Positions 28,807-56,506 of a stretch of DNA of 64,000 nt are shown here, piece by piece. A program made the position numbers and the translations under genes. Within the stretch, counting starts at the first letter, position 1; each line of letters opens with the position of its first letter. The notes under the pieces are model-generated. The model had not been told where the DNA came from. It made no database searches and was given only the letters and a program-made list of their open reading frames with translations. The DNA is from an uncultured Nitrospirales bacterium (GTDB taxonomy: Bacteria > Nitrospirota > Nitrospiria > Nitrospirales > UBA8639): NCBI GenBank assembly GCA_951812745.1, contig OX638327.1, positions 1,165,914-1,229,913 on the forward strand, read 5' to 3'.

Positions 28807-28861
28807 ATTTACGGCTCGTTGACCCCTCTGTAACGCCACCGTAACGAAAAGTTTTTAAACC
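28807..28861 (+). promoter_or_regulatory. Pho-box-like array + -10 (porin promoter)
   Basis: Hexamers ATTTAC/GTTGAC/TGTAAC/CGTAAC at 28807, 28818, 28829 and 28840 (11-bp phase), then 10 nt, then TAAACC. Confidence 0.55.
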
Positions 28862-28939
28862 TGCTCCAGCACAAATTTGCATCAAACGCAAGTCGATATT
28901 TCCATGCCATTGACCATTTACGAGAGGGGAGATTTCTTT

Positions 28940-30406
28940 ATGAGCGTTCAGCGAGGGATCCTTGGAATGATGGTACTGTTTGTCATGATGACCCTCATGC
29001 CGTCGCCGGCAACGGCAATCGAGGGGGACTTACTCCTGGAGATTTTGCTGGAAAAAGGCATCATCACAAAGGATGAGTTGACTCAGATCAAAGCCGAAGA
29101 AAAGAAGCGGGAGGCCGCAAGAGCCGCGACGCACTCCAGGAAGAAAACCCAGATCGAAGCCGGCTACGGACAGGAGACGCCGGCAGTCGCGAAAACGTCG
29201 GAACCATCCAAAAAGAAGGATTCCGGGGTCAAAGTCGGCTTCGGGAAAAAAGGATTTACCCTGGCCACCACGGATGGATTGTTCAAAACCAAAATCCAAT
29301 GGCGGTTTCAAGGCCGGTACACCTTTCCCGAACGGGGAGATCCACGCAATGCAGGCGCGTTCAGTGACAACGAAGAGAGTACGTTCGAGCTTCGGCGGGT
29401 GCGGATGAAAGTCGGAGGGCACGGGTACAAACCCTGGATCAAATATTACTTCGAAGTGGATTGGCAACCCATGCGTACCGATGATCGAGATCAAGCACGT
29501 GCCTCAACCCGTCTGATTGATTGGCGCATCATGCTGGAAAAATACAAGTGGCTCAAATTGCGGATCGGGCAATGGAAAATCAACTACAGCAGAGAGCGGG
29601 TCGACTCCTCCGGGAAACAGACCATGGTGGAACGGTCCATTATGAACCGGGTGTTTACCATCGACCGGCAAATGGGGATGATGTTGTACGGCCGCGTGAA
29701 TCCCGGCACGATCCTTGATGCGAACTATTACCTCGGGGTTTTTTCCGGCGCCGGTCGTGGTGTGAACAACGACGACGACAACATGATGTATATGGGGCGC
29801 ATCCAATGGAACGTCTTCGGCCGTGAACTCAAATGGCGGCAAAGCGACGTCAAGTTCCACAAGAAACCCACGGCCAGTATCTCATACGGCGCATATACGA
29901 ATAAGGGCAAATGTACGCGATGGTCGTCGGGCGGATGCGGAAGCCTCGGCTCTCTCAGCAGGGCCGGTGACAGTTTTTCGACTTCTGTCGCCGATGGCCG
30001 ATACCAGGTCAGCGGGATGCAGGTCGGGTCGGCCTTCAAGTACCGCGGGTTTGCCTGGCAGCATGAAACGCATTGGAAAAAAGTCAAGGATACTGAAGCA
30101 GCGGCTGGGTTGCAAAGAACGAATATGTTCGGGGGCTATTTCATGGCCGGCTATTTCCCGCACTATCTCATTTCGGCCGTTCCCAAGCCATTGGAAATCG
30201 CCTTCCGGTATTCACACGTCGATCCGAACGTGGATGCCGGCGGAGACCTCCGCCAGGAATTTACCACGGGCCTCAATTGGTTCTTTGCCGGGCACCGCAA
30301 CAAGCTGACGCTCGACGCCTCGCACCTGACACTTGAGCAACCAACTCCCAACTTGCCAGCGTGGACGGAACAACGCGTCCGTCTCCAGTGGGACGTGTCC
30401 TTCTGA
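28940..30406 (+). CDS. phosphate-selective porin O/P family outer-membrane protein
   Basis: Signal peptide MSVQRGILGMMVLFVMMTLMPSPATA, a coiled N-terminal segment, then a beta-barrel-like alternating pattern ending ...RVRLQWDVSF. Its context is the Pho regulon. Confidence 0.7.
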   Translation: MSVQRGILGMMVLFVMMTLMPSPATAIEGDLLLEILLEKGIITKDELTQIKAEEKKREAARAATHSRKKTQIEAGYGQETPAVAKTSEPSKKKDSGVKVGFGKKGFTLATTDGLFKTKIQWRFQGRYTFPERGDPRNAGAFSDNEESTFELRRVRMKVGGHGYKPWIKYYFEVDWQPMRTDDRDQARASTRLIDWRIMLEKYKWLKLRIGQWKINYSRERVDSSGKQTMVERSIMNRVFTIDRQMGMMLYGRVNPGTILDANYYLGVFSGAGRGVNNDDDNMMYMGRIQWNVFGRELKWRQSDVKFHKKPTASISYGAYTNKGKCTRWSSGGCGSLGSLSRAGDSFSTSVADGRYQVSGMQVGSAFKYRGFAWQHETHWKKVKDTEAAAGLQRTNMFGGYFMAGYFPHYLISAVPKPLEIAFRYSHVDPNVDAGGDLRQEFTTGLNWFFAGHRNKLTLDASHLTLEQPTPNLPAWTEQRVRLQWDVSF

Positions 30407-30447
30407 TCGACTTCTTATCCTGAGAGGAGCTGTGACTCCTCCTCCCG

Positions 30448-30484
30448 GGAAGCTTCCTGGACCGCGACGGTCCAGGAAGCTTCC
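30448..30484 (+). terminator. 17-bp perfect hairpin downstream of the porin gene (no U-tract)
   Basis: ggaagcttcctggaccg-cga-cggtccaggaagcttcc. Confidence 0.5.
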
Positions 30485-30602
30485 TCCCCTCTACCGTCCC
30501 TCCATCCCATCTTGACAAAGGGACAGCGCCTCTCTCATTTTTTCCAAAAAGGAAACTTTTGGTAATACGCAACAAAGAATACAGCAAAGGAGAGCAATTG
30601 GC

Positions 30603-31040
30603 ATGGGATTTACAGCCATTAAAGAGAAGGCCTCTGCACTCTTCAATGAGGCGTCTTTTATCAGTCAGATCAGGAATAAACGCGACTATGAACGGGCCAT
30701 GGCCCTCATGGATGAATTGATCGAAGATTACGACAACCAAAAAGCATTGATTGACGTGCTTTCCGGTTCAATCGCGCGGTGGGAAAATACGTCTCCTGAA
30801 TTCAGCGCGTTCAATGACCGCATTGAAAAACTCGATAGCGGCATCACGACGCTGAACGTCATCATGGAGCAACATCGCCTAGGGGTTGCCGATCTGCCGG
30901 AGATCGGCAGCAAATCGCTGGTGTCCAGAATATTACGCGGCGATCGCCGACTGACGCGCGATCACATCGAGGCGTTGAGTCAACGATTCGGCATAAGTCC
31001 CGCGTTGTTTTTTCAGGCGAATCGAGGCCGGGACAATTGA
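30603..31040 (+). CDS. HigA/YgjM-type HTH antitoxin-like regulator, orphan
   Basis: ...ARWENTSPEFSAFN...LPEIGSKSLVSRILRGDRRLTRDHIEALSQRFGISPALFF. The C-terminal XRE HTH is as I remember for E. coli-type HigA. There is no room for higB in the 196-nt upstream gap. Confidence 0.7.
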   Translation: MGFTAIKEKASALFNEASFISQIRNKRDYERAMALMDELIEDYDNQKALIDVLSGSIARWENTSPEFSAFNDRIEKLDSGITTLNVIMEQHRLGVADLPEIGSKSLVSRILRGDRRLTRDHIEALSQRFGISPALFFQANRGRDN

Positions 31041-31087
31041 GAAGAGAACTGGTGCAATGAACGAGCGCGCCGGTGTCGTTCCATTTG

Positions 31088-31747
31088 TTACCGCAATTCC
31101 TTGAAGCGTACCCCGACCTGCCACGGCTTTCCCGTTGCGACGGTGCCGAAGGACTCGTTTTGCGGTGTGACCATGAATTGAGGAGGATCAAACACCAGCC
31201 GGCCGGGTTGCGGCTCGAGTTGCTTGAGGGGCTGGAGTCTGACGGGTGAATGGTATTCTTCCACGTCCTGCCAAATTTCGGTCTGGGCCGCATGATTGCT
31301 GAGGATCACGTACAGCACGTCGCCCTGCAGATACAGCCCTCCGGAAGTCCTCACTTCATGCAAGTGGGAAATTTCCCCGCGCTCATAAAAGGTGACGACT
31401 TCGTTCGGCTGCGCCAGGCCGAACCCCTGGGCCAGCAGGGGCGCAAAAAATGCGATTTCGTTTTGATTAAAGACAGGGTAGCGCTCCGATTCGCCCCCAC
31501 CCATCAACGGCAGGGAGATGGAGCTTTGGCGTTCGACGTACAGCCCTTTCAGCACGTTGGCGATGTCGGTGTTCTTGAGAAACGCCGGATGGGAAAACCC
31601 CTCCCCCCGGCTGCTCTCGGAAACCGTTTGCAGTCCGACTTCCCGGTTGGGGTCCGTATAGACTTTCTGGGTCACGACGTGGGAGGTGCCACCGCACGCC
31701 GCGAGCAGCCACACCATGCTCAATCCGAGTCCTGCCAAGACTTTCAT
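31088..31747 (-). CDS. hypothetical lipoprotein
   Basis: MKVLAGLGLSMVWLLAACGG carries a lipobox (LLAAC). Trimmed to ATG 31747 because the upstream extension is REP family B. Confidence 0.55.
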   Translation of the reverse strand: MKVLAGLGLSMVWLLAACGGTSHVVTQKVYTDPNREVGLQTVSESSRGEGFSHPAFLKNTDIANVLKGLYVERQSSISLPLMGGGESERYPVFNQNEIAFFAPLLAQGFGLAQPNEVVTFYERGEISHLHEVRTSGGLYLQGDVLYVILSNHAAQTEIWQDVEEYHSPVRLQPLKQLEPQPGRLVFDPPQFMVTPQNESFGTVATGKPWQVGVRFKELR

Positions 31748-31803
31748 CCTTCTTCTGACTCCTTTCTTGATCAGAGACTTTTTCCGGATCGGAGGAGGCA
31801 TGC

Positions 31804-31841
31804 TCCCCCTCACCCTACCCTCTCCCTCCAGGGGCGAGGGT
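31804..31841. repeat. REP family B
   Basis: ccccctcaccctaccctctccctccaggggcgaggg. Confidence 0.85.
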
Positions 31842-31918
31842 TTACGAAGACCCATCCTAGCATACCGTCAAGACGAAGTTCCCCGTTTGCGCGGGGCATT
31901 CCGGCGATTTCGGCATTT

Positions 31919-31973
31919 ATTTACTTGACCCTAACGTCACGGAAACCTTCTCTTTACATTGCGCGGATACGCT
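31919..31973 (+). promoter_or_regulatory. Pho-box-like array + -10 (CBS-psiE-arsC promoter)
   Basis: ATTTAC/CCTAAC/GGAAAC/CTTTAC at 31919, 31930, 31941 and 31952, then 10 nt, then TACGCT. The ATG is 29 nt downstream. Confidence 0.6.
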
Positions 31974-32001
31974 AGGCCATCCACGGTCAGAAAGGGGGCC
32001 T

Positions 32002-32915: not shown

Positions 32916-32936
32916 CCGGAAGCCGCGATCCAAGTC

Positions 32937-34083: not shown

Positions 34084-35649
34084 TCATTCCGCCGCGTCTG
34101 TCGAAAACCTCGGGTCCACCTGAACGGTGAAGGTGACCTCTCGCCCGAAGACTTTCCGGAACAGGTCTGCTCGCGATTGCGCGGTCCAGATTTCCAACTC
34201 CGAGTCGGCCAGAGCCTTCAACTCGATGTTCATTATTTTTCCGATGGTGACGTGGACGTCCCGGATGATGGAAAAGTGACTGCGATCCAAGCCATCCGCA
34301 ATGCGTAAAATCGCGCTCAGCGTCTCCAGCACCTTTCGCCTGGCAGGTGAAAGGAGTTTATACGGCAGGTGTTGGGGGCCAGGTAACGAGCGGCGATGAT
34401 AACGGGCCACGTTGGCGATCATCTCGATTTCATCGACCGTAAATCCGGCCAGATCGCTGTTCGTAATCAAATAGTAACTGTGCTTATGGTGTTGGCGTGG
34501 ATTAATGGCGTACCCCACGTCGTGGAGCAATGCGGCATATTCCAGACACTCGCGTTCCTCGTCAGCCATGCCATGCAGGGATTGCAGTTGATCAAACAGC
34601 GACAAGGCCAACGTCGCCACGTGACGGGAATGCGTCTCCGGGTAATGGCAGCGTCTGGCCAAGGCCACGACGTTCCGCAATCGGATATTTGGAATTTCCT
34701 GCTCGATCAGTAAGCCTTCCTGGTTCTTTTGGATGAAATCGTAGACCAACCCTTCACGCATGGCTTTGTCGCTGATCGTAGCTTCCTTATGCCCGATGGC
34801 TTCGAGAGTTTGGCGAATCACCGACGTCGCCGCCAGCAGCGTATCCACCCGTCGCGGGTCCAGACCCGGGATGCCGAGCCGCGTGTCCACGTCGCTCGTC
34901 GCGAGCCGTTGCTCGACGGCGCGAATTTCTTTCAGGGTAATGGTCGAGAGGTTAATCTGGGGGATGGGGGCACCGGTCCGTTCCAGATAAATGATTTCCG
35001 CCAGGTTCGAGGCCATGCCGGAAGAAATCACGACTCGATCAAACTCAGGCTGACGAAATCGCTCCAAGGCGGCTTCCAGTTCTTTGGCGATCATGTCGTG
35101 CATGGCCCGCAGTTTGGCCTTCGGAGGCGGCGCTTTGGTCAAGAACAGATCTTTCAGGCGAATGGCCCCGAGTTTGAGACTCTCGGCGTGTAGCAGACGC
35201 TTTCGATTCCCCGCGATGATTTCGACCGAGCCTCCGCCCACGTCCACCAGCAGAGTCGGTTGGTCCGTCAAATCCATGCTTTGGCGAACACCCAGGTAAA
35301 TGAGGCGGGCTTCTTCCTGACCCGTGATGACCTTGACGCGAACACCCGTGCTCTCGGACACTTCCTCGACAAATTGGCCGCTGTTGCGCGCTTCACGAAC
35401 CGCGCTGGTCGCCGCCATCAGAATGCGATCAAACCCTTTGTTTCGTGCCAGCGTCGTCAGGTTTTTCAGGACTTCAACGCCTCGCGCCCGCGCCTCCGCA
35501 GACAACCGTCGCTGGCGAAACGTCCCGTCACCCAGACGGGTCATGTCCTTGAACCGATCAAGAATCTTATAGGAGCCATCAGGTTCGGCTTCCGCCAACA
35601 CCATGTGAATGGAATTGGTCCCAATGTCTATCACGGCGATCTTCGACAT
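34084..35649 (-). CDS. ppx: exopolyphosphatase / pppGpp phosphohydrolase (Ppx/GppA) with HD domain
   Basis: IAVIDIGTNSIHMVLAE...LLVDVGGGSVEI...LLHDVGYAI. Confidence 0.9.
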   Translation of the reverse strand: MSKIAVIDIGTNSIHMVLAEAEPDGSYKILDRFKDMTRLGDGTFRQRRLSAEARARGVEVLKNLTTLARNKGFDRILMAATSAVREARNSGQFVEEVSESTGVRVKVITGQEEARLIYLGVRQSMDLTDQPTLLVDVGGGSVEIIAGNRKRLLHAESLKLGAIRLKDLFLTKAPPPKAKLRAMHDMIAKELEAALERFRQPEFDRVVISSGMASNLAEIIYLERTGAPIPQINLSTITLKEIRAVEQRLATSDVDTRLGIPGLDPRRVDTLLAATSVIRQTLEAIGHKEATISDKAMREGLVYDFIQKNQEGLLIEQEIPNIRLRNVVALARRCHYPETHSRHVATLALSLFDQLQSLHGMADEERECLEYAALLHDVGYAINPRQHHKHSYYLITNSDLAGFTVDEIEMIANVARYHRRSLPGPQHLPYKLLSPARRKVLETLSAILRIADGLDRSHFSIIRDVHVTIGKIMNIELKALADSELEIWTAQSRADLFRKVFGREVTFTVQVDPRFSTDAAE

Positions 35650-35682: not shown

Positions 35683-35737
35683 TTCATATTAACAGGATAG
35701 GTAGGTTCCATAACAACAGCGTGATAAGCATGTTACG
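35683..35737 (-). promoter_or_regulatory. weak Pho-box-like array upstream of ppx
   Basis: The minus strand reads CGTAAC/TATCAC/TGTTAT/CTACCT in 11-bp phase, then 10 nt, then TATGAA. Only the first hexamer is a good match. Confidence 0.25.
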
Positions 35738-36662: not shown

Positions 36663-36729
36663 TTTAACACCGGGGCTGCGGCAATGTAACCCTCAGATAA
36701 CAAATCGCCCCGGGAAATCGCGTAAAAAT
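36663..36729 (+). promoter_or_regulatory. Pho-box-like array + -10 (promoter of the 814-aa/PSD/Lgt/TPR operon)
   Basis: In-phase hexamers TTTAAC (36663), ggctgc, TGTAAC (36685), GATAAC (36696), gccccg, then 10 nt, then TAAAAAT at 36723. Confidence 0.55.
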
Positions 36730-36792: not shown

Positions 36793-39237
36793 ATGCTGAT
36801 AAAAACCGAATCGCCATCCTCAACCGTTCAAACGTTTTCTTCTGATCACCAACAAAGGGTCGAACGTCTGGCCGACGTACTCGGTGCCGGCGGGCGCTCA
36901 TCAAATTTGAACCTCTGCAGTCTCCCCTTCGCACCGGACGACGTGACAGCGGGCTCGGAAAACGAATACCAAACCGCGGTATTGGGCACGACGAAACACG
37001 TCGACCTACCCATTACCCTGCAAACGTCCAATTTTTACAAAAACCTGGTCAAACAAACCTGGCGCAAAGGGGCTCCCTTCGCGAAAGCGGGGGGCCATTC
37101 CAAACGCAGCAAATCCGAACTCGAGGCTTATTTGGCTCACGAATCCAACGACGTCTGGGAAAACAGTTGGGTCCGGTTTCCGAGGCGGACGCTCGGTCCG
37201 TTTGCCAGACAGGTGCTTCAACATGATCTCCTGGCCGACAAAAAAGACCTTGCCGGCCCGCCGAGACGAGACATCAGGAAGGTGGTGTTTTATCAGGATG
37301 GGGAAGAGTGGGTCCGCGTTCCAATCAGTTACCTCTCGCGCCTCGCATTGGCCGACGTCATAAGCGGCAAGGCCCCTTCCGCCATTCGTCGCATCGGCGA
37401 ACGCCTCATGGATCACTTTCTGAATGACAACACGTCTCCGGAAACGTGCAGCTTCTATATCATGAACCTGCATCAGGATACCAAGATGGGACGTACAGTC
37501 GGGAAGGAAGCGAGCAAACGGTTCTTTCTCAGTCATTTACTGACCACGTACGCCAACCGGAAGTTCGCGTTGCTCGAAACGGGCCAACGGGCCCTGATGT
37601 ATTTTGCGCCGCATCCGCCAATCCGTCAAAAACGTCTCAACGGTCTCATTTCCGACAACTTTTATCGGGAACTCTTCATGAACCCCTGTTTGTCGGGATG
37701 GGACAACGGGCCAGACAAGCACGAGTATATGCGACTCTGCCATGAGGTGCTGTCACGAAGTCACCAGCACGTGATTGGAAAGCTCAAGAATGCCGGAATC
37801 ATTACACGCAATCTGGTCGTCCCGACCAGCCCCTCCAACATCAGCCTGGCAAATAACGGCACCCACGTCAGCTTGGGAAGCCGAAAATTGACACAGCTTT
37901 CCCGAACCATGCCCGACGAATTTACACCCCGCGATGAAAAATATTTCGGGGATCTCGTGACGAAAGTCGCCGAGCATTTCCTTCCGTTATTCGTCGGAAC
38001 CTACAGCGCCGCTCCGTATCGTTTGGACTTCTGGGACTTTCATCCGGAAAACGTGCTGGGCTTTCTCCCCCATGAATTAGATCACCAATTTCTGCGTTTA
38101 CTCTGGCAGCGGTGGAAACGAAAGGCCGGCTTGCGGTTCTTCGGGAAACCCGTCACGCCCCTGGGACCGGTGTGGTTGGACAAGGCGTTGAGCTACGGGT
38201 TTGGGATGCGAGGGGATTATATCCCCGATTTCCGGCTCATCGATTATCTGGTCGTCCTGCCGAGCACGGAAGAATGTCCTGCCCTCGACGGCACGCTTGG
38301 GAACGACCTTCGGCTCAAACGAGACCTGGCCGAACAGGGCATCTATGACGAACGAATGTCCTTTTATCAGCTTTATAAACTCCGAACGTTTTCCACAATG
38401 GGATTTTCCGGATTCGAGGGCCGGTACTATAGTTTGTTTGAAAGCCTCCTCGACGACATGGGAGAAGCCGCCAGTCTTCAGGCTTTGGTCACCGCGTTGG
38501 CGTTCAAATATATCTTCCAATTTGATGTGCAGCCTTCCGACATTTCCGACGACCCCGCCACGGAAAGTGAACGGCGACAGATCTTTTTCGGGGCGGCCGT
38601 CAATCTCCCCACCTTCTACGTCCGTGCCGACACGTCGAACTGGTTTCTGAAACGCATCCTGGCCCGAACGCCGAAAGTGCGGCTGAGTCGACGATTTTCC
38701 TCATATTATCGGGTCCATTATCGGGAATATGGCCGAACCCTCTTGACGATTCTCCGGGAGGACGGCCCGGACCTCATTGAAGCCTTTCAACTGCACGACG
38801 TCATGGACAAACTCAAAGACCGGCTCGAAAACCCTGATGATTGCTCGACGTTCGGGAAGCTGACGAAAGGCATACTGCAGGAAAGTGGGGCAACCTCCCC
38901 CTTCAGTCTTTCAGGAGAGGAGTACAACACAGCCGCTGAAACCTACTATCGTCACACGCTTCGACAACGACACCTCAGCGAAGCGATTCAGGAATTGGAA
39001 GTTGATTGCGCCGCCCTGGATGACTGTACGGGCTCAACCCTTCACACGAGCAAAGCCCTCATGCAAACCATCCTGGGGCCTTCCACGTCCGCGGGATCCT
39101 TTCTGGAACGCACAAAGCCCGTACTGATCGACGAAACGATCTCCCTCCCTCAACTCACGAAATTGATTTATCTGGTGTTGATCACCTTACTGGTCGATGA
39201 GCAACGTGCCGGCGATCATGAATCCGAAATTGATTAG
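36793..39237 (+). CDS. large conserved-looking protein of unknown function (814 aa)
   Basis: GAAGAGG lies 6 nt before the ATG. The ORF is uninterrupted with normal composition. I see no P-loop, TM helix or signal peptide. Possible metal/ligand-type motif SLANNGTHVSLGS. I recognise no family. Confidence 0.7.
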   Translation: MLIKTESPSSTVQTFSSDHQQRVERLADVLGAGGRSSNLNLCSLPFAPDDVTAGSENEYQTAVLGTTKHVDLPITLQTSNFYKNLVKQTWRKGAPFAKAGGHSKRSKSELEAYLAHESNDVWENSWVRFPRRTLGPFARQVLQHDLLADKKDLAGPPRRDIRKVVFYQDGEEWVRVPISYLSRLALADVISGKAPSAIRRIGERLMDHFLNDNTSPETCSFYIMNLHQDTKMGRTVGKEASKRFFLSHLLTTYANRKFALLETGQRALMYFAPHPPIRQKRLNGLISDNFYRELFMNPCLSGWDNGPDKHEYMRLCHEVLSRSHQHVIGKLKNAGIITRNLVVPTSPSNISLANNGTHVSLGSRKLTQLSRTMPDEFTPRDEKYFGDLVTKVAEHFLPLFVGTYSAAPYRLDFWDFHPENVLGFLPHELDHQFLRLLWQRWKRKAGLRFFGKPVTPLGPVWLDKALSYGFGMRGDYIPDFRLIDYLVVLPSTEECPALDGTLGNDLRLKRDLAEQGIYDERMSFYQLYKLRTFSTMGFSGFEGRYYSLFESLLDDMGEAASLQALVTALAFKYIFQFDVQPSDISDDPATESERRQIFFGAAVNLPTFYVRADTSNWFLKRILARTPKVRLSRRFSSYYRVHYREYGRTLLTILREDGPDLIEAFQLHDVMDKLKDRLENPDDCSTFGKLTKGILQESGATSPFSLSGEEYNTAAETYYRHTLRQRHLSEAIQELEVDCAALDDCTGSTLHTSKALMQTILGPSTSAGSFLERTKPVLIDETISLPQLTKLIYLVLITLLVDEQRAGDHESEID

Positions 39238-47096: not shown

Positions 47097-47765
47097 TTAG
47101 CCTTCTTGCGGGGGGATGGTATGGCGGATGATTTTTCCTTCGACCAGGTACACCACCAGTTCCGCGACGTTCGTCGCGTGGTCGGCAAGCCGTTCAATGT
47201 ACTTGGCGATAAAGGAGAGCCGGATGGCCCGGCTGATCGTCTTGGGATTTTCCATCATGAAAGACAAGAGTTCCCGGAACAACTGTTCCGTCAGATTATC
47301 GACGAAATCATCATCCTGAATGACTTTCCGGGCCAATGCCGAATCCATTTTGACAAAGGCGTCCAACGATTCTTTGACCATGATGCGGGCGCGCTCGGCC
47401 ATGTGAGGAATGTCGATATAGGGCTTCAACTGGGGCTCTTCGTTGAGTTCGATCGCCCGCTCGCAGATATTTTCCGCCAAGTCGCTCATCCGCTCCAATT
47501 CAGTGGAAATTTTCATGGCGGTGGTCACAAAGCGTAGATCCCTGGCAACGGGCTGATACCGGACCAACGCGTCGAGCGCCATCTCGTCGATTTCCACGTC
47601 GAACGTATTCACCTTGTGATCGTTCTCGATGACCCGCTGCGCCAGGGCTTCGTCACGTTCAACCAACGCAGTCAGGGCGTTCCTGATCTGCTCCTCGACC
47701 AGGGAGCCCATCATGAGAATTTTGCTTTTGATCCTGTCGAATTCTTCTTCGAAGTGACGTTCCAT
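47097..47765 (-). CDS. phoU: phosphate signalling complex protein PhoU
   Basis: Two PhoU repeats: ...D..VD....E..CL..LA...P.A.DLR pattern, e.g. VARDLRFVTTAMKISTELERMSD. Confidence 0.95.
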   Translation of the reverse strand: MERHFEEEFDRIKSKILMMGSLVEEQIRNALTALVERDEALAQRVIENDHKVNTFDVEIDEMALDALVRYQPVARDLRFVTTAMKISTELERMSDLAENICERAIELNEEPQLKPYIDIPHMAERARIMVKESLDAFVKMDSALARKVIQDDDFVDNLTEQLFRELLSFMMENPKTISRAIRLSFIAKYIERLADHATNVAELVVYLVEGKIIRHTIPPQEG

Positions 47766-47797
47766 TTCTTCTCATTTCCCCTTAAAAACGAGTCATA

Positions 47798-48655
47798 TCA
47801 ACCAAACCTTCCGGTGACGTAATCTTCGGTCCGGCTGTCCGATGGATTGGTAAAGATGGTTTTGGTCTCGGCGTATTCGATCAATTCCCCCATGAGAAAA
47901 AAGCCGGTCAGGTCGGAGATGCGCGCGGCCTGTTGCATGTTATGCGTGACAATCACCACGGTGAGTTGCTCTTTCAGGGAATGCAACAACTCTTCGATCT
48001 TCGCGGTCGAGATGGGATCAAGCGCGGAACAGGGTTCATCCATCAGCAAGACTTCGGGGTTGACGGCCAACGCACGCGCAATACACAAACGTTGTTGCTG
48101 CCCACCGGACAGGCCGAGCGCGCTGTGATGCAAGCGATCCTTGACTTCCTCCCAGAGGCCCGCGCCCTGCAGACTCTTTTCGACAATGCCGTCGAGCACG
48201 GAACGACGCCGCACGCCCTGAAGCTGCGGCCCATAGACCACGTTTTGGTATATCGACTTGGGAAACGGGTTCACTTTCTGGAAGACCATGCCGACCCTGG
48301 TCCGCAGGTCGGTCACGTCCACTGAGGGATCGTAGATGTCCTTCCCGTCAAGACAAATCCTGCCGATGACCCGAGCTCCCTCAACCAGATCGTTCAACCG
48401 GTTGAAGCAACGCAACAACGTCGATTTCCCACAACCGGACGGGCCGATAAAGGCCGTGACGTGATGCGTCGGGACGGTCAGGGCGACTTTGAACAGCGCC
48501 TGTTTCTCGCCGTAAAAGAAGTCGGTATCCTCGACCGTGAGCTTGTGTTCGTTGTCTTGAGAACGTTCAGAAGAAGCCATGGTTGTTTCCGCCGCCTGCA
48601 TGTGTCGAACAGCAGTTTGATGGGGTTGTGATAACGTGTCAATACGTGAACTCAT
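47798..48655 (-). CDS. pstB: phosphate ABC transporter ATP-binding protein
   Basis: [20 protein letters not shown]...[15 protein letters not shown]...[12 protein letters not shown]. The N-terminal start is uncertain. Confidence 0.95.
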
Positions 48656-48676
48656 GAGACCGAAACCTGTTGAACC

Positions 48677-50311
48677 TTACACCGCCGACGCCTTGAATTT
48701 TTTCTGCATGTAATTGCGAAGGGCCACGGCGCTGAGATTCAGAACAATGACCACCATCACCAGGATCAGGGTGGTGACGTACACCATCGGCTTCGCCGCT
48801 TCAACGTTCGGGGACTGAAAGCCCACGTCGAAAATATGGAAGCCCAAGTGCATGAATTTGCGTTCAAAGTGCAGAAAGGGGAAATGGTGGTCCAAGGGAA
48901 GCGCCGGCGCCAATTTGACGACCCCGGTTAACATCAGGGGGGCCACTTCACCCGTTGCGCGCGCCACCGCCAGGATCAGCCCCGTCAAAATGCCCGGCAG
49001 GGCGCAGGGCAGGATCACGCGCAGCATGCTTTCAAACTTGGTGGCGCCCAACGCCAGGGAGCCTTCACGGTATTCCCGGGGGACGGCTGAAAGCCCTTCT
49101 TCCGTGGACACGATCACCACCGGAACCGTCAACAGGGCCAAGGTGAACGACGCCCACAGAATGCCACCCGTACCGAACGTCGGAGTCGGCAGGGCTTCGG
49201 GGTAGAACAGGGTATCAAGGGTCCCGCCGACCGCGTACACGAAGAACCCCAATCCGAACACGCCGAACACGATCGACGGCACGCCGGCCAGGTTATTGAC
49301 GGCGATGCGAATCACCCGAACGATCAATCCCTGTCGCGCGTACTCCCGCAGGTAGAATGCGGCCAGGACGCCGAACGGCACCACGGCCACGCTCATGATC
49401 AAGACCATCATGACGGTACCGAAGATCGCCGGGAAAATGCCCCCCTCGGTATTGGCTTCCCGCGGTTCTTCGCTCAGCACGGACCAAAAATTCATGAAGT
49501 ATCGGAGAATCTTTTCGACGAAGCCCATGTCGTTGGGACGCAGGGCTTTCACGATTTGGCCGACCGCGAGTTGTTTCTCGCGGCCATTCGTTTCGACGAG
49601 GATCACGGCATATTCGTCGAGTTGACGACTCAATTTCCGAAGGGTAGCCACGTGCTTCTCGTACTGGGTTTCCAACTGTTTGGTGGCGGTTTGAAGCTCG
49701 GCCACCTCCTGGGGCTCATGTTGACCGCTTAATTCCAACTCCCGGATTTTTAAACGGGTTTCTTCGATGTCATAATTGATGTCGCCGATAACGTCTCGTT
49801 GCAGGTGTTCAATCTCCTCATGCAGGTCATTGGCCTGCTCGATGAGTGGCTGTAACGCCTTCCATCCTTCCTGATTGCCCGAAGCGACGACGTCGCCGCC
49901 GCGCGAGACCTCCCGAATCCGGCCATAAAAGTTCCCCCATTCTCTCCGTTCGAACGCCGCCACGTCTTTCGGAGATTCCGCCGAGACGATTTGATCGGTA
50001 TCCACCCACCGGAAGTCCAGGCCATAGAGGTCACGATTCCCGACTTTCAGCCTCACCCGCGTTTTCCCTTCGGGAAATGCCGGCGTCTCCGAATAGGGAA
50101 TGACTTCCTCCCCTTTCAGTTCTCCCAGGACGTGCGTGCCGTCTGTGAGCGTCAGATCCACCAGGGCGTGGGGCCAGAAAAACCCGAGGCCGTTGACCAT
50201 GATCAGGAGCAGGACACCGCCAACGAGGAGCAGCGAGGCAGCCACCGCCGTGCCGCAAAACCACACGAACAGCGTCCCCGAGTCGAGAAATTTTTTGATC
50301 CTGGCACGCAT
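48677..50311 (-). CDS. pstA: phosphate ABC transporter permease PstA, long form
   Basis: The C-terminal half is a PstA-type permease core (...EGSLALGATKFESMLRVILP...). A ~230-aa extracytoplasmic/coiled-coil insert follows TM1. Confidence 0.85.
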   Translation of the reverse strand: MRARIKKFLDSGTLFVWFCGTAVAASLLLVGGVLLLIMVNGLGFFWPHALVDLTLTDGTHVLGELKGEEVIPYSETPAFPEGKTRVRLKVGNRDLYGLDFRWVDTDQIVSAESPKDVAAFERREWGNFYGRIREVSRGGDVVASGNQEGWKALQPLIEQANDLHEEIEHLQRDVIGDINYDIEETRLKIRELELSGQHEPQEVAELQTATKQLETQYEKHVATLRKLSRQLDEYAVILVETNGREKQLAVGQIVKALRPNDMGFVEKILRYFMNFWSVLSEEPREANTEGGIFPAIFGTVMMVLIMSVAVVPFGVLAAFYLREYARQGLIVRVIRIAVNNLAGVPSIVFGVFGLGFFVYAVGGTLDTLFYPEALPTPTFGTGGILWASFTLALLTVPVVIVSTEEGLSAVPREYREGSLALGATKFESMLRVILPCALPGILTGLILAVARATGEVAPLMLTGVVKLAPALPLDHHFPFLHFERKFMHLGFHIFDVGFQSPNVEAAKPMVYVTTLILVMVVIVLNLSAVALRNYMQKKFKASAV

Positions 50312-50320
50312 GGAATCCCT

Positions 50321-52615
50321 TTAAAATTGGCTGTATCGCGCCCGAAGCCGCTGCCGGACGATTTCCGCAAGGGTGTTGACGATGGACGTAAACACGAACA
50401 GGAGGAGGCCGGCCAGGAACAGTAACCGATACAGCGTGCCTCCATGCGGGGCCTCGGGCATTTCCACGGCAATGTTCGCCGATAAGGTTCGGAATCCGTT
50501 GAAGAGATTCATGTCCATCACCGGGGTGTTGCCCGTGGCCATCAGCACGATCATGGTTTCTCCCACGACCCGGCCCAACCCGATCATGAGAGCGGAGAAC
50601 ACGCCGGGACTCGCCGAGATGATGACCAACTTCGTCAGGGTCTGCCACGGGGTGGCCCCGAGGGCCAATGATCCGGCGATCAGGTGGGGCGGCACGTTGC
50701 TCAGCGAATCCTCGCTGATGCTGAAAATCGTGGGAATCACGGCCATGCCCATGGCAAAGGCAATGACCAACGCGTTTCGCTGGTCGTACGCCAACCCGAA
50801 CGTCGACTGCAACCATTGCTTATAGTCCGAATCGAAGAGCCAGAATTCGACCTGGTGATTCAACTGGAGACAGACCCACACCGTTCCGATGAGGAGCACC
50901 ACGAACGCCGCCAATTCCGTCACGTTCCCCGAGTGGCCCTTGAGGCGTGAAGGCAGGAATTGCCAACCGACGCAGACCAACACCACGGCCAGCGGGATCA
51001 GGAGAAACATGGCCACCAGGGCGGGAAAGATCTTTTCCAACAGCGGCGCGAACCACAATCCGGCCAGGAATCCCAGGACGACCGTCGGGAAGGCCGCCAT
51101 GATCTCCACGACCGGTTTGACCACGGCGCGAATATTCGGACGCATGAACATCGCGGTATAGATCGCGCCCAGCACGGCGAGCGGCGTGGCCAGCAACATC
51201 GCGTAGATCGTCCCTTTCAGCGTGCCGAACATGATCGGCCATAAGCCGAATTTCGGCTCGAACGCATCCGAGCCCCCGGTTGATTGCCAAATATGGAGAG
51301 GCTCTTCGTACCCTTCATAGAGCACGGGGAAGAACAAGGACGAGAACGTGGATTCGGGATGCTCATTCTCAAAATGATAGGTGATCAGTCGTCCCGAATC
51401 ATCGAGCACCAAGGCGCCGTCTGTCTTCGGTGCGAACATCGCAGCGACAATGGCGGAACCGTTCCCGGGGATTTGGATGAGCGTCTGATCGGAAGTCGAA
51501 TGGTGCAGGGCTACGCCGCCGGAGACGTCCGCCGTGAGAAATCCTTTATCCCGAAGCGAAGGGGAAACGGCGCTCACGGCCCCGTTATGCGAAGCCAGGT
51601 CCCGAATCTTTTCAAGACGCGGATCACCTCCCACGTCAGGATCGATCACGGACATCCAGACGGAGACCGTCCCTTTTTCCGTACCGACCACGATGGACCG
51701 GTCGCCGATGAGATAGGAAAGGGCGGTGATGGACGTGCCGGCGGAATACATCCCCATCAGCCTCGGGCTTTGGATGTCTTGAATGTCCCAATACAGCAAC
51801 CTGCCGTCCTTCGTACCGCCCAACAGGGTTTCCCCCAAGTCGTCCAGGAGCAGCACGGACAGCGCCTCCACGCCCTCATCAATGATCTCGGCCTGAAGGA
51901 GTTCCGATTCCGTTTCCAGCGCAAACAGCCCCTCCGCCTCCGATTCCTGCATCTTGGTAAGGAACAAGCGGCCCGACCCGGTCAAGACGGCGGCGATGGG
52001 TCCACTGTCCGTCTCCCGGTAGGCAAGTCGCGCAACGGGCTCACCCGTCGGGGCGGCCTCAAACGGCTCACCCGAAGTCACCACCGGTTCGGTTTTTCGT
52101 ACGTCGTCTTCGAACGTGACTCGAAACGTGACGTACAAGGGCATGACTCGACCGATTCTCGTCCCGAGTCCATAGACGTGGTCTTTCCCCGGAGAGCGGG
52201 CCAGCGCGGTAATTTCCCCGGTCTCGAAGTCCGGCACGGACTTGAGCGGTATCGGCGTGCCGGAGGGAAACCTATAGAACGAAATGTCGCCGTTTCGAAG
52301 TACGTATCCCACTTCCCTGTATTCATTGATCCCCACACTGACGTTTTCCAGAGGAGCTTCCCCGCTTGTGTCGATGTGCACGGAAGTCCCTTGGCTCCAG
52401 GAAGCGGCGTAAAACAACGGAGCCACTTCGATAAACAGGTAGGCAAAAATACCGAAGATGCTAAAAATGGTCGCCCATCCGCCAAGGGTAATCACCCCTC
52501 TTGCTCCATGGTCGGCCCAACGCCGCAACGTCCGGGAGGTTATCTTCGAAGGGAACGACGGCGCAGGGGGCGATGCCGTCTCGACCTGATTTGCTGTGGG
52601 ATCAGCCTGGTTCAT
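50321..52615 (-). CDS. pstC: phosphate ABC transporter permease PstC, long form with ~430-aa N-terminal repeat domain
   Basis: C-terminal ~300 aa are a PstC core (...AGSLALGATPWQTLTKLV...). The N-terminal domain after TM1 shows WD40/beta-propeller-like units (GTKDGRLLYWDI; GTEKGTVSVWMS; HNGAVSAVSPS). Confidence 0.85.
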   Translation of the reverse strand: MNQADPTANQVETASPPAPSFPSKITSRTLRRWADHGARGVITLGGWATIFSIFGIFAYLFIEVAPLFYAASWSQGTSVHIDTSGEAPLENVSVGINEYREVGYVLRNGDISFYRFPSGTPIPLKSVPDFETGEITALARSPGKDHVYGLGTRIGRVMPLYVTFRVTFEDDVRKTEPVVTSGEPFEAAPTGEPVARLAYRETDSGPIAAVLTGSGRLFLTKMQESEAEGLFALETESELLQAEIIDEGVEALSVLLLDDLGETLLGGTKDGRLLYWDIQDIQSPRLMGMYSAGTSITALSYLIGDRSIVVGTEKGTVSVWMSVIDPDVGGDPRLEKIRDLASHNGAVSAVSPSLRDKGFLTADVSGGVALHHSTSDQTLIQIPGNGSAIVAAMFAPKTDGALVLDDSGRLITYHFENEHPESTFSSLFFPVLYEGYEEPLHIWQSTGGSDAFEPKFGLWPIMFGTLKGTIYAMLLATPLAVLGAIYTAMFMRPNIRAVVKPVVEIMAAFPTVVLGFLAGLWFAPLLEKIFPALVAMFLLIPLAVVLVCVGWQFLPSRLKGHSGNVTELAAFVVLLIGTVWVCLQLNHQVEFWLFDSDYKQWLQSTFGLAYDQRNALVIAFAMGMAVIPTIFSISEDSLSNVPPHLIAGSLALGATPWQTLTKLVIISASPGVFSALMIGLGRVVGETMIVLMATGNTPVMDMNLFNGFRTLSANIAVEMPEAPHGGTLYRLLFLAGLLLFVFTSIVNTLAEIVRQRLRARYSQF

Positions 52616-52637
52616 GAGGAAGTCGTTGACGCGTAAA

Positions 52638-52687
52638 TAACAAAGCCATGTCCGAAAACCGAGGCTTTGCAGGACATGGCTTTGTTA
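52638..52687 (-). terminator. intercistronic 16-bp stem-loop between pstS and pstC
   Basis: taacaaagccatgtcc-(18 nt)-ggacatggctttgtta. The minus strand continues with tttacg; there is no long U-run. Confidence 0.6.
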
Positions 52688-52745
52688 CTATTGTTGCTCA
52701 ATGGTCGTACACTTTGGCTTTCAGTTCAAGCGAGACGACTGAAGC

Positions 52746-53768
52746 TTACATTTCACCCAACTTCTTGGTGATGAGGGTTTGCGGCAAAGGGAAATAGCCA
52801 TCCTTGATGACGATGTTCTGTCCCGCTGTGCTATACACGTATTTCAGGAATTCCGAGACCAACGGCGGCAGCGGTTTCCCCGGAGCTTTATTCACGTACA
52901 AGTAGAGGAACCGCGCCAACGGATACTTGCCGACGGAGGCGTTGGCAAACGTCGGGTCATAGCACCCGGCGCCGCTCTTGGCCGACAACGGAATCGCCCG
53001 GACGCCCGAGGTCCGATACCCGATGCCGCTGTATCCTAGCCCACCACGATCCTCCGTCACGCCCTGCACTACGGAAGCCGAGCCGGGTTGCTCCTTGACC
53101 TCATCCTTATAATCGCCTTTCTTCAACACCTTCTTCTTGAAAAACCCGTAGGTCCCCGAGGCTGAATTTCGACCGTACAGGCTCACCCTCGTGCTTTTCC
53201 AGTTCCCATCAAGACCCGCTTTCCCCCACGTATCGATATTCACGGAATGCCCGCGCCTCCGGGTTTTTGAAAACGCGGCATCCACCTCTTCCATACTGAG
53301 ACATTTCACGGGATTGTCCTTGTTGACGTACACGGCCAGCGCATCGACGGCCACGGGGAAACTGGTGGGTTTATAGCCGAATTTCGCTTCGAACTTGTCC
53401 ATCTCTTTCGCTTTCATTTGCCTGGACATCGGCCCCACCTGAGCCGTCCCTTCAATGAGGGCCGGGGGCGCCGTGCTGGAGCCTTTCCCTTCGATTTGAA
53501 TCTTCACGTTGGGATATTCTTTTCTGAACCCTTCGGCCCACAGGGTCATGAGATTGTTGAGAGTGTCGGACCCAATGCTGTTCAGGTTCCCGGACACCCC
53601 GCTCACCTGACTATAGCTTTTCCAGGCCGGGTCCACCATCGAGTCGGAAGCCGCCCCACTCTGGATTGCACTGCCAATACCGATTGCCAGGAAAAGGAAA
53701 CTCACGGATACAATCCTCTTACTGAAAAAACGACTTGTGTCGTGTGCCAAGACGAAACGTCTCATCAT
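52746..53768 (-). CDS. pstS: phosphate ABC transporter substrate-binding protein
   Basis: Signal peptide, then ...GSDTLNNLMTLWAEGF...IEGKGSSTAPPALIEG...ASGTYGFF. Confidence 0.95.
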   Translation of the reverse strand: MMRRFVLAHDTSRFFSKRIVSVSFLFLAIGIGSAIQSGAASDSMVDPAWKSYSQVSGVSGNLNSIGSDTLNNLMTLWAEGFRKEYPNVKIQIEGKGSSTAPPALIEGTAQVGPMSRQMKAKEMDKFEAKFGYKPTSFPVAVDALAVYVNKDNPVKCLSMEEVDAAFSKTRRRGHSVNIDTWGKAGLDGNWKSTRVSLYGRNSASGTYGFFKKKVLKKGDYKDEVKEQPGSASVVQGVTEDRGGLGYSGIGYRTSGVRAIPLSAKSGAGCYDPTFANASVGKYPLARFLYLYVNKAPGKPLPPLVSEFLKYVYSTAGQNIVIKDGYFPLPQTLITKKLGEM

Positions 53769-53824
53769 GCTGCAACCCTCCTTCTGAAGAATGTATTTGC
53801 GGTACCGTTCCCTGGCAGTTGCCT

Positions 53825-53879
53825 ACTCTAACGGTTGAATGTTTCCCGGACGTAAAAAGTAGGTTACGAAATTGTTAAG
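53825..53879 (-). promoter_or_regulatory. Pho-box-like array + -10 (pstS promoter)
   Basis: The minus strand reads CTTAAC/CGTAAC/TTTTAC/GGAAAC (plus-strand starts 53874, 53863, 53852, 53841; 11-bp phase), then 10 nt, then TAGAGT. Confidence 0.65.
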
Positions 53880-54073
53880 CGAAAGGGGCTACCCGGAGGC
53901 CCTCATGCTTCGGCCCTGCCGGTCTGCCAAACGAAACGGCCGTGTTCACACGGAATGGACGTCTGCACTATACGGGGAGCGTATTGCAGTCACATATGAG
54001 AAGGGTTACACCTCGGTAAATTTTCTGCGCCCTCTTACATGGAAGAGGCTGTTGTGTAGGGCGTCCCTGCCGA

Positions 54074-54270
54074 ACCCCCCTGGCCCCCCTTATCAGGGGG
54101 GAAAAGACTTGCTGCTGTCCCCTGCTCAGGGGGAGAGAGGAGTTCTGCTGTCCCCCTGACAAGGGGGATTGAGGGGGTTGTCTTCCAAAGGCGGGGCAGG
54201 CACGGGGGCCGTCCCCTACAACGACCATGATGGAGGGACAGGGTTAGCGTGGCGTAGCGTAACCCGACCA
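54074..54270. repeat. cluster of REP elements (families E, D, A)
   Basis: cccccttatcagggggg...cccctgctcaggggg...ccccctgacaaggggg; ggcacgggggccgtcccctacaac; gggttagcgtggcgtagcgtaacccgac. Confidence 0.85.
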
Positions 54271-54271
54271 G

Positions 54272-55657
54272 CTAGCAGGCGGGTTGGAGTTGCCCGGCCG
54301 GAAGCAGAACTTCGATCGTCGTGCCCTTGCCGTATTCACTCTCGATGTGAAGCGTGCCGCCGTGCAATTGCACCAAATGTTTCACGATGGCGAGACCGAG
54401 GCCGGTGCCGCCTTCCACGCGGGCACGCGCCTTGTCGACCCGGTAAAACCGTTCCGTAATGCGAGACAGATCGTTTGGCGGAATACCCTGCCCCGTATCC
54501 CGGACCGTGATACGAATTTGACGGATGTCCATTTTCGCCGCGAGAAAACTGACCGTTCCCCCTGCCGGCGTATACTTCACGGCATTGTCGACCAAATTCA
54601 CCAGAATCTGGGAAAGCCGGTCCCGGTCGGCCTGCACCCATAAACCGGGAGGGACCTGGTTGACGAGCCTCACGTCTTTTTTCCCGGCATCCTTCTCAAA
54701 CATCGCCGAGACGTCCTGCACGAAGTCCCCGAGACTGATGGGAATGGGATCCAGGACCACTTTTCCCGTCTCGATGTCGGAAAGGTTCAGCAGGTCATTA
54801 ATCAAGCGCCCCATCCGTTCCGCGTGGCTGTTCGCGATCTCCAGAAATCGCCGGTGCGTGGCCGATTCCAGCCTGGTTTCATCGAGTACGGTCTCCAGGT
54901 ACCCCTTAATGGCCGTCAACGGCGTGCGTAACTCATGGGACACGTTCGCCACGAATTCCGCGCGGACCTTTTCCAGCCGCCGCAATTCGGTGATGTCGTG
55001 CAGGACGAGCAAAAAGCCGCGGCGCCGGGAGGTAAAAGGCATGGGCATCGCATTCACCTCGATGTTTCGCAAGGCCGGCATATAGCACTCGATTTCCCGC
55101 TTGCACGGCTCCGCGGTGTCGAGGGCCTGACACATCTCCACCCAATCGGCCAATCCCTTGTCCCTGACGACCTCCAATAAGGTGCGCCCTTCTCCCTGGT
55201 CCTGAGCAACGTCGAGAATCCTTCGCGCCGCGGGATTCATCAGAATCACGTACCCTTGCCCATCCAAGGCGATCACACCCTCAGTCATATTATCGAGGAT
55301 GGCGGTGCCTTTCGCTCGTTCAGACTCCAAGACGTCAACCCGTGTCCGGGGGTACGCCCTGATGTAATCCAACGCCTTTCTCAAGCCGTTCCATTCATCG
55401 TCCTCGAGTGTCTGCTCCCGTTCGCTCCACCCCTCCAGCAGACGCTCAGCCCGGGTGTCCATCTCATGGAGCGGCCTCAACAGCCTTCGGCCCAACCACA
55501 TGCCAAAAGGAAACCCCAACGCGGCAACCACCAAGGACCCAACCCAGAGCGTCCCGCCGGTCGCCCCGGAAGAGGCCAACAGCCCCATGGCCCCCATGCC
55601 GGCCAACGTCATGCCACTGAGCAACAAACCCAGACGTGTCAGTAACCGGCTCTTCAA
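54272..55657 (-). CDS. phoR: phosphate regulon sensor histidine kinase
   Basis: Two N-terminal TM helices, a PAS domain, the H-box FVANVSHELRTPLTAI and an ATPase domain (...RDTGQGIP...GGTGLGLAIVK). Confidence 0.9.
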   Translation of the reverse strand: MKSRLLTRLGLLLSGMTLAGMGAMGLLASSGATGGTLWVGSLVVAALGFPFGMWLGRRLLRPLHEMDTRAERLLEGWSEREQTLEDDEWNGLRKALDYIRAYPRTRVDVLESERAKGTAILDNMTEGVIALDGQGYVILMNPAARRILDVAQDQGEGRTLLEVVRDKGLADWVEMCQALDTAEPCKREIECYMPALRNIEVNAMPMPFTSRRRGFLLVLHDITELRRLEKVRAEFVANVSHELRTPLTAIKGYLETVLDETRLESATHRRFLEIANSHAERMGRLINDLLNLSDIETGKVVLDPIPISLGDFVQDVSAMFEKDAGKKDVRLVNQVPPGLWVQADRDRLSQILVNLVDNAVKYTPAGGTVSFLAAKMDIRQIRITVRDTGQGIPPNDLSRITERFYRVDKARARVEGGTGLGLAIVKHLVQLHGGTLHIESEYGKGTTIEVLLPAGQLQPAC

Positions 55658-55674
55658 AACCGGGGGCTCCTCAT

Positions 55675-56370
55675 TCAGCCTTCCTCCTCGAAGCGGTATC
55701 CCACACCCTTGACCGTCACGATCCGGTGACTTTCATCTTTGAGTTTTTCTCGAAGGCGCCTGATGTGGACGTCCACCGTCCGCGATTCGATCTCCACGGC
55801 ATTGGCGTATCCCCAGACCATTTCCAGAATCTGCTCCCGGTTCAACACCCGGCCGTTGGCCTGGACGAGCGCACGGAGCAGATCGAACTCCTTCACCGTC
55901 AGGTCGATGAGACCGGCTGCAACCCGAACCTGATGTTTCGCTTCGTCGATTTCAAGCGTCCCGATTCGCCTGATGCCGCCCGTTTGCGCATCACGCCCCC
56001 GCCGCAATACCGCCTTGATCCGAGCCACCAATTCCCTGGGGGAAAACGGTTTGACCAGGTAATCGTCCGCCCCCATCTCCAGGCCCACCACCCGATCGAC
56101 TTCTTCGGCTTTGGCCGTCAGCATGATGATCGCCACGTTGGCCAAGGTCCGATCCCGGCGAAGCAACCGGCAAATTTCCAACCCGTCGATACCGGGCAAC
56201 ATGAGATCCAGCACAATCAGATCCGGGCGTTCGGTCCGGGCGAGTTGCAGCGCCGTTTCGCCTTCAAACGCCTCGATACAGGACAGGCCTTCTTTCTCCA
56301 AATGGTGGCGAACGAGGTTCACGATCGCCTGTTCATCATCCACGATTAAGGCTTTCAGCGCCATGGGCAC
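55675..56370 (-). CDS. phoB: phosphate regulon response regulator (OmpR/PhoB family)
   Basis: ALIVDDEQAI...DLIVLDLMLPGIDG...LTAKAEE...winged-helix LTVKEFDLLRAL...RTVDVHIRRLREKL. Confidence 0.9.
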   Translation of the reverse strand: MPMALKALIVDDEQAIVNLVRHHLEKEGLSCIEAFEGETALQLARTERPDLIVLDLMLPGIDGLEICRLLRRDRTLANVAIIMLTAKAEEVDRVVGLEMGADDYLVKPFSPRELVARIKAVLRRGRDAQTGGIRRIGTLEIDEAKHQVRVAAGLIDLTVKEFDLLRALVQANGRVLNREQILEMVWGYANAVEIESRTVDVHIRRLREKLKDESHRIVTVKGVGYRFEEEG

Positions 56371-56462
56371 CTGTTTTGGTGTGAATCCCTCATTCGAAAA
56401 GCAGAGCGTGTCTCTCCTTCAAAACATGGCTGTACCGCAAACGTGGCACAACAATCATTCCA

Positions 56463-56506
56463 AGTTTATTGGCTTGATGTTTCCTCTGGGTTTCATTTGT
56501 GTTAAG
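56463..56506 (-). promoter_or_regulatory. Pho-box-like array + -10 (phoBR promoter)
   Basis: The minus strand reads CTTAAC/TGAAAC/GGAAAC (plus-strand starts 56501, 56490, 56479), then 10 nt, then TAAACT. Confidence 0.55.

Follow-up and report, generated by a model that had tools for sequence, protein, structure and literature searches.

Gene content and promoter arrays

The stretch examined here (the window, 64,000 nt of contig OX638327.1) carries a phosphate island at 26-58 kb, in which several transcription units are preceded by hexamers repeated in 11-bp steps and followed by a -10-like hexamer. This repeated promoter layout is real and, as judged from sequence, almost certainly a binding site of the response regulator PhoB, i.e. 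a Pho box. Pfam and NCBIfam searches identified a porin O/P gene, the CBS-psiE-arsC genes, ppx, ppk, pstSCAB-phoU and phoBR as members of the island (Table 1). The closest named homologues of PhoB come from Nitrospira and Candidatus Nitronereus. Therefore, the organism can be considered a member of the Nitrospirota.

Table 1 Promoter arrays, genes and repeats of the window (numbering from its first letter; N10, ten nucleotides of any kind; aa, amino acids)
Feature	Position	Strand	Details
Porin promoter	28807-28861	+	ATTTAC 28807 / GTTGAC 28818 / TGTAAC 28829 / CGTAAC 28840, N10, TAAACC 28856-28861; ATG 28940
CBS-psiE-arsC promoter	31919-31973	+	ATTTAC 31919 / CCTAAC 31930 / GGAAAC 31941 / CTTTAC 31952, N10, TACGCT 31968-31973
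ppx candidate copy	35694-35737	-	CGTAAC, TATCAC, TGTTAT, N10, TATCCT; not supported as Pho box
814-aa operon promoter	36663-36728	+	TTTAAC 36663 / (GGCTGC) / TGTAAC 36685 / GATAAC 36696 / (GCCCCG), N10, TAAAAA 36723-36728; ATG 36793
pstS promoter P1	53825-53879	-	CTTAAC 53879 / CGTAAC 53868 / TTTTAC 53857 / GGAAAC 53846, N10, TAGAGT 53830-53825; ATG 53768
pstS promoter P2	53967-54022	-	A-ATTTAC 54021 / TGTAAC 54010 / TCATAT 53999 / TGCAAT 53988, N10, TATAGT 53972-53967
phoBR promoter	56463-56506	-	CTTAAC 56506 / TGAAAC 56495 / GGAAAC 56484, N10, TAAACT 56468-56463; ATG 56364
DUF3422 and VapBC genes			First in island order (Pfam/NCBIfam)
Porin O/P gene	28940-30406	+	Pfam Porin_O_P
CBS gene	ATG 32002	+	Family assignment confirmed (Pfam/NCBIfam)
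PsiE gene	32400		Family assignment confirmed (Pfam/NCBIfam)
ArsC-type LMWPc gene	32937		Family assignment confirmed; His_Phos_1 gene next in order
ppx	34084-35649	-	
Inositol monophosphatase-family (IMPase) gene		-	After ppx in order
814-aa protein gene	36793-39237	+	No family; followed by phosphatidylserine (PS) decarboxylase-like, Lgt-like and TPR genes
CYTH-CHAD, ppk1 and HigB genes			Between 814-aa operon and phoU (Pfam/NCBIfam)
phoU-pstB-pstA-pstC-pstS	47097-53768	-	
PstA	48677-50311		
PstC	50321-52615		
phoR	54272-55657	-	PhoR-type histidine kinase; Pfam PAS/HisKA/HATPase_c; co-transcribed with phoB
phoB	55675-56364	-	OmpR-family response regulator; Pfam Response_reg and Trans_reg_C; presumed box-binding protein
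Terminator-like hairpin	53940-53953	-	Upstream of P1
Tandem G/C hairpins	54086-54174		Three units
REP-like hairpin copies	18434, 22458, 25187, 27966, 34008, 43641, 46990, 54252		

The arrays were read directly from the window sequence. All hexamers, 11-bp steps and N10 gaps that the original prediction had listed for five units are present. A canonical -35/-10 pair was sought at the five promoter regions and none was found. Next to these, the putative promoter P2, absent from the original list, lies about 140 nt upstream of P1 and reads A-ATTTAC-cgagg-TGTAAC-ccttc-TCATAT-gtgac-TGCAAT-N10-TATAGT. P2 would be a second complete Pho box before pstS, forming a tandem promoter with P1. It is read in this way because the interval between both showed no significant RNA structure when folded in search of a small RNA or attenuator (z = 0.47), and no Rfam family was matched in a scan of the whole window. 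Counterparts of P2 are found as upstream boxes in two related loci, L085 (12175) and L087 (12340). About 15 nt downstream of the P2 -10, a terminator-like hairpin is formed by CCGTGTGAACACGG followed by CCGTTTCGTT; the region around it as a whole folds no better than shuffled sequences.

The divergent IMPase gene was considered as sharing the boxes of the 814-aa operon on the opposite strand, and the reverse complements of these boxes do not fit the hexamer (6.7 bits).

Scans of the window

A 6-column hexamer matrix was trained solely on the seven pstS and phoB hexamers, and three- and four-unit arrays with 11-bp steps were scored on both strands (128 kb), with 300 dinucleotide-preserving shuffles of the window as the null. 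The best non-training four-unit arrays in the whole window are those before the porin gene (21.9 bits), the CBS gene (20.2 bits) and the 814-aa operon (16.3 bits), followed by matches at about 11.5-12.3 bits. The score of the porin or the CBS array was equalled by the shuffle maximum in 0.7% of the shuffles (family-wise p of approximately 0.007 each). By window statistics alone, the 814-aa site falls short of significance (p = 0.07 for four units and 0.66 for three units). When two hexamers with a summed score of at least 10 bits were required together with N10 and TAnnn[T/A], only CBS, phoB and pstS matched in the 128 kb.

Next, an external model was applied to the window, a 61-column matrix built from sites of other genomes only. 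The pstS promoter P1 is its top match (36.3 bits), with P2 at 32.9, porin at 18.6 and CBS at 15.6 bits. The shuffle maxima have a 95th percentile of 13.9 and a 99th percentile of 17.9, the latter being exceeded by the porin score, while the largest maximum is 21.0.

Conservation in relatives and position of the -10

Three sets of related loci were compared: PhoB-encoding contigs (L081-L087, PhoB identity 73-92%), 80 ppx-anchored metagenome loci (L088-L167, identity 58-97%) and four contigs with homologues of the 814-aa protein (L168-L171, protein identity 59-82%). Genes in these relatives were labelled by BLAST against the window proteins, and the 400 nt upstream were scored with a cut-off of at least 14 bits. 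Arrays above this cut-off precede 16 of 30 pstS-like, 7 of 13 CBS and 2 of 3 porin genes. They are nearly or wholly lacking in the 400 nt before ppx (1/79), His_Phos_1 (0/48) and pstA, pstB, pstC or phoU (0/99). In the pstS-bearing 20-kb loci, the single best array on either strand always lies directly upstream of pstS, and the porin-type layout is also found before the porin genes of L168 and L171. The association with pstS and phoB, on which the original prediction had relied, is borne out in the window as well as in the loci of the relatives. Across the Nitrospirota, position and phase of the boxes are kept; the flanking DNA is not conserved.

For phoB, the relatives from three other lineages (L081/82, L083/84 and L085/86) share CTTAAC-acaNa-(T/C)GAAAC-N10-TAnnnT, with TAGAAT, TATGCT and TATTAT as -10s. 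The window box has one additional in-phase unit (GGAAAC) and retains N10 to TAAACT. The gain of exactly one 11-bp unit is what would be expected under a phase constraint. In Candidatus Nitronereus thalassa (L085, 9321-9353), CTTAAC-acgga-TGAAAC-N10-TATTAT lies about 690 nt upstream of phoB and within a called RNase_H_2-like gene, which implies an internal promoter or an over-called open reading frame (ORF).

The window and the Nitrospirota loci together make up 1.17 Mb, for which local-composition shuffles served as the null. Strong hexamer pairs occur 84 times in this set versus 15.9 +/- 3.8 times in the shuffles, a 5-fold excess, so that the phased pattern is not equally frequent in random DNA; pairs with TAnnnT at +32 occur 42 times versus 0.20. 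From these data, 64 non-redundant pairs were taken, defined as two good hexamers 11 bp apart with no condition on the following sequence and with near-duplicates dropped. TAnnnT starts at an offset of 10 nt after the second hexamer in five pairs, at 21 nt in six and at 32 nt in 31, with 0-3 pairs at each of the other offsets from 0 to 37. Therefore, the -10 lies at 10 + 11n nt, and the commonest layout has four units followed by N10. Almost half of the pairs (31/64) are units 1 and 2 (U1 and U2) of such a four-unit array.

When these 31 four-unit sites are aligned, columns outside the selection are conserved as well: an A precedes U1 in 24 and follows it in 22 sites, and U3.5 is A in 28. Within U4, position 2 is G in 29 sites, position 4 is A in 26, position 5 is A in 30 and position 6 is C or T. 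The resulting consensus is a-(G/T/A)TTAAC-a, (C/T)(G/T)TAAC, nnTnAn, tGaAA(C/T), N10, TAnnnT. Such near-helical phasing and A-rich cores are also typical of bent DNA, and the AAC/TAC words might then be intrinsic shape elements of strong promoters (curvature or UP-element-like) with no dedicated regulator. This is very unlikely, given that non-A/T positions are conserved (the C at hexamer position 6 and the G at U4.2), that the arrays occur at Pho genes and at no other promoter of the 64 kb, and that PhoP and SphR sites established by experiment are in agreement with them.

The hexamer is a short, degenerate word, and base composition predicts about 2.4 occurrences of three in-phase [A/T]AC words per 128 kb. 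Moreover, the top noise match of the hexamer matrix is a repetitive extragenic palindromic (REP)-like element that holds CGTAAC/CTAAC-like words. An origin of the pattern from chance, compositional bias or this dispersed repeat is nevertheless extremely improbable when set against the shuffle tests, the sharp offset peaks of the -10 and the conservation in relatives whose flanks do not align; the REP-like copies also lie at other coordinates and do not have the N10-TAnnnT layout. This explanation is refuted for pstS, phoB, porin, CBS and the 814-aa operon. It is still the best one for the weaker sixth copy that the original prediction had placed before ppx: its 8.9 bits with the hexamer matrix are at noise level, attained in 100% of the shuffles, its 7.9 bits with the external model equal the mean shuffle maximum, and arrays before ppx orthologues are as rare as given above.

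The REP-like hairpin itself (tgtcGGGTTACGCTACGCTAACCCGACCTAC) is present in eight copies in the window versus 0.26 expected, a number reached in no shuffle. Judged by ORF coordinates, the copies seem mostly intergenic or just beyond gene ends.

In some relatives, good four-unit boxes occur farther upstream of ppx, before a small gene encoding only a Trans_reg_C domain or before another gene preceding ppx. There, ppx may belong to the regulon via a different route. The Trans_reg_C-only genes of L170 (3713-4222) and L171 (9043-9687), directly upstream of ppx, encode stand-alone proteins of 125-132 aa with an OmpR-type DNA-binding domain and no receiver, and are preceded by a perfect four-unit Pho box, N10 and TACCCT/TAGCAT. 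Such a protein could modulate or compete at Pho boxes.

The 814-aa operon

The 814-aa promoter, statistically the weakest of the five, has a five-unit frame that is kept in all four contigs with homologues (L168, L169, L170 and L171): U1 is strong, U2 weak, U3 and U4 strong, and U5 reads nnnCCG, with N10-11 between U5 and a TA-rich hexamer. When the five upstream regions (mean identity 54%) were aligned with MAFFT without guidance, invariant columns appeared in U1 (TT.ACA), U3 (AAC), U4 (TAACA), U5 (CCG) and one A of the -10. As both the frame and these columns are kept in the four relatives, the site is confirmed by comparative footprinting.

No relative of the 814-aa protein was found in Pfam, NCBIfam or the PDB sequences using a 25-sequence profile. 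Its AlphaFold model (pLDDT 78, pTM 0.85) gave no Foldseek match against the PDB with E < 0.16, the sole resemblance being a faint one to gamma-glutamylcysteine synthetase (TM 0.43, target-normalised). Homologues occur in Nitrospirota, Desulfobacterota, Nitrospinae and others. In 4/4 relatives the gene is followed by PS-decarboxylase-like and Lgt-like genes, and in 3/4, where the contig is long enough, also by the TPR gene. Neighbours of the operon are PhoX, GDPD, porin O/P and ppk genes, i.e. phosphate islands. The conserved operon that begins with the 814-aa gene has no assigned function and seems to be under phosphate control. It is possible, if doubtful, that the Pho box marks the 814-aa, PS-decarboxylase-like, Lgt-like and TPR genes as a phosphate-starvation operon, perhaps for a new membrane-lipid remodelling or phosphorus-sparing pathway.

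PhoB, PhoR and the proposed mechanism

The window holds no OmpR-family gene other than that of PhoB, for which a tblastn search of the window retrieved no paralogue. The best NCBIfam model of PhoB is TIGR02154 PhoB (253 bits versus a cut-off of 296 bits), and those of PhoR are PnpS/PhoR (389 versus 400 and 315 versus 334 bits). The phoB-phoR-pstSCAB-phoU synteny is kept in all PhoB-encoding relatives. Orthology of both proteins is likely, although below the curated thresholds. PhoB is 44% identical to E. coli PhoB, with an identical recognition helix (RTVDVHIRRLR). The wing arginine (R219 in E. coli PhoB) is replaced by lysine in the window protein. When aligned in register, TGTAAC and TGTCAC, the half-site of E. 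coli, differ by one base, and the distance to the -10 is 10 nt for both boxes.

Taken together, direct repeats of at least two 11-bp units are found upstream of pstS, phoB and other phosphate genes, where they end 10 bp before a -10 (assigned from sequence) and replace the -35. The original interpretation as a Pho-box type is supported by these repeats, by their end at 10 nt before TAnnnT with no canonical -35, and by the Pho-gene context. Very probably, the arrays are Pho boxes, serving as tandem head-to-tail sites for the phosphorylated form of the PhoB encoded in the window. Each 11-bp unit, a hexamer n(T/G)T(A/T)AC often followed by A, would bind one PhoB DNA-binding domain, all on the same helix face, and the last unit would end exactly 10 nt upstream of a sigma-70-type -10 (TAnnnT). 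Standing in place of the missing -35, the array would allow PhoB to recruit RNA polymerase via sigma region 4, as in E. coli. Based on the missing -35, the recognition helix, the half-site register and the E. coli geometry, class-II-type activation by tandem dimers of phosphorylated PhoB is the most likely mechanism. Phosphate limitation would then turn on pstSCAB-phoU (through two tandem boxes), phoBR (autoregulation), the phosphate porin, CBS-psiE-arsC and the 814-aa operon. PhoB binding, transcription start sites and phosphate-starvation induction are predictions from the sequence.

Several points weigh against this interpretation. Two units of the 814-aa promoter do not match, and the strong ones end 21 nt instead of 10 nt before the -10. 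In addition, the final base of the -10 is C (porin) and A (814-aa) instead of T. PhoB and PhoR score below the NCBIfam equivalog cut-offs, so that their orthology rests on the best match and the pstSCAB-phoU synteny. The hexamer matrix also catches the REP-like repeat with its CGTAAC-like words, and a description of a Pho box of Nitrospira or Nitrospirota was not found in the literature searched.

Instead of the PhoB of the window, or in addition to it, another OmpR-family protein whose gene lies elsewhere in the genome might bind the boxes, e.g. a homologue of the stand-alone Trans_reg_C proteins. The whole OmpR family recognises 11-bp-phased direct repeats, the Trans_reg_C-only genes of L170 and L171 themselves carry perfect four-unit boxes, and the sub-threshold score of PhoB would fit as well. 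This is unlikely, since the boxes follow pstS, phoB, the phosphate porin and psiE through many genomes, since PhoB is the sole OmpR-family candidate of the window and syntenic with pstSCAB-phoU in all relatives, and since E. coli PhoB has the same recognition helix and a half-site differing by one base.

Comparison with known Pho boxes

Pho boxes consist of 11-nt direct repeat units (PMC4415409), and their spacing to the core promoter is strict (PMC10294691). In E. coli, CTGTCAT-N4-CTGTCAT ends 10 bp upstream of the -10 (Makino 1988; Blanco 2002; PMC4415409, PMC1906773), which reads TAN3T/A (PMC1906773). The present boxes share with it the 11-bp repeats, the end at 10 nt before TAnnnT/A, the replaced -35, the identical recognition helix and the targets pstS, phoB and psiE, the latter being a known Pho gene. 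They differ in the half-site (TGTAAC/CTTAAC versus TGTCA(T/C)) and in the number of units, four being the norm here versus two. As originally proposed, the repeat is not that of E. coli: none of the listed units equals CTGTCAT, and TGTAAC is the closest.

According to Eder et al. (1999), as cited in PMC11870197, the core region of B. subtilis PhoP sites has four TT(A/T/C)ACA-like hexamers with 11-bp periodicity. Four direct hexamers of this kind and period are also found here, and the core is near-identical: (T/G)T(A/T)AC, then A in 22 of 31 U1 units. Bacillota metagenome genomes also carry this layout beside phoB/pst genes. Unlike in B. subtilis, the host is a Gram-negative-type member of the Nitrospirota that encodes PhoB, PhoR, PhoU and PstSCAB, the second hexamer position is frequently G (GTAAC), and the unit nearest the promoter follows a separate consensus, tGaAA(C/T). 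In cyanobacteria, the SphR box contains three or more copies of the 8-bp repeat CTTAACCT in tandem, separated by 3-bp linkers (Suzuki et al. 2004; Su et al. 2007; PMC1906773). It resembles the present boxes in its 11-bp unit, its at least three tandem units, its core (C/G/T)TTAAC and its place upstream of pstS and phoA-type genes. However, the CT at its positions 7-8 is not conserved in the present boxes, where A prevails at position 7, and autoregulation of the regulator gene, present here, is not general in cyanobacteria. The PHO boxes of Streptomyces PhoP (PMC2275107, PMC4415409) are likewise composed of 11-nt direct repeat units in variable number, strong and weak units giving simple and complex operators, but have a GTTCACC core in a high-GC actinomycete promoter context.

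A scan of genome contigs for PhoB was swamped by generic response-regulator peptides. It yielded one Nitrospirales and one 'Nitrospiraceae' locus (48% identity) besides many other phyla, which made it useless for close footprinting, and it was reused for a cross-phylum test. Among these phoB-anchored loci, the top matches of the four-unit model are in Anaerolineaceae (Chloroflexota, 28.4 bits), Bacillota (25.9), Omnitrophota (24.7), Halanaerobium (23.4) and Binatia (20.0). The layout is also the top match near phoB homologues in Syntrophobacterales, Lentisphaerae and Methylomirabilota. The downstream gene was checked for ten top matches, and in six it is a recognisable pstS, pstB, porin or phoB. 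The original description of the box as lineage-specific does not hold, as the same layout occurs in other phyla and matches the B. subtilis PhoP box and, in its core and 11-bp unit, the cyanobacterial SphR box. Judging by these matches, the box belongs to the widespread TTAAC type, which is already described for Bacillus and cyanobacteria, is common to many phyla and is documented here for Nitrospirota.

While our understanding of the Pho-box mechanism is unchanged by this finding, it provides a model of PhoB sites in Nitrospirota (four 11-bp units, N10, TAnnnT) that has been cross-validated and can be used to predict the Pho regulon across whole genomes of isolates and metagenome bins. In wastewater plants and soils, the main nitrite oxidisers belong to this phylum.

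Other features of the pst-pho region

Three tandem units of 33-34 bp, located in the interval that separates the phoR end from the pstS promoters, each form a G/C hairpin (CCCCTnnnCAGGGGG). These might act as terminators or insulators. PstC (764 aa) and PstA (544 aa) are far above the usual length of about 300 aa, PstC having a long N-terminal extension with weak beta-propeller/WD40-like Pfam matches. The extension is also kept in the relatives L085 and L087.

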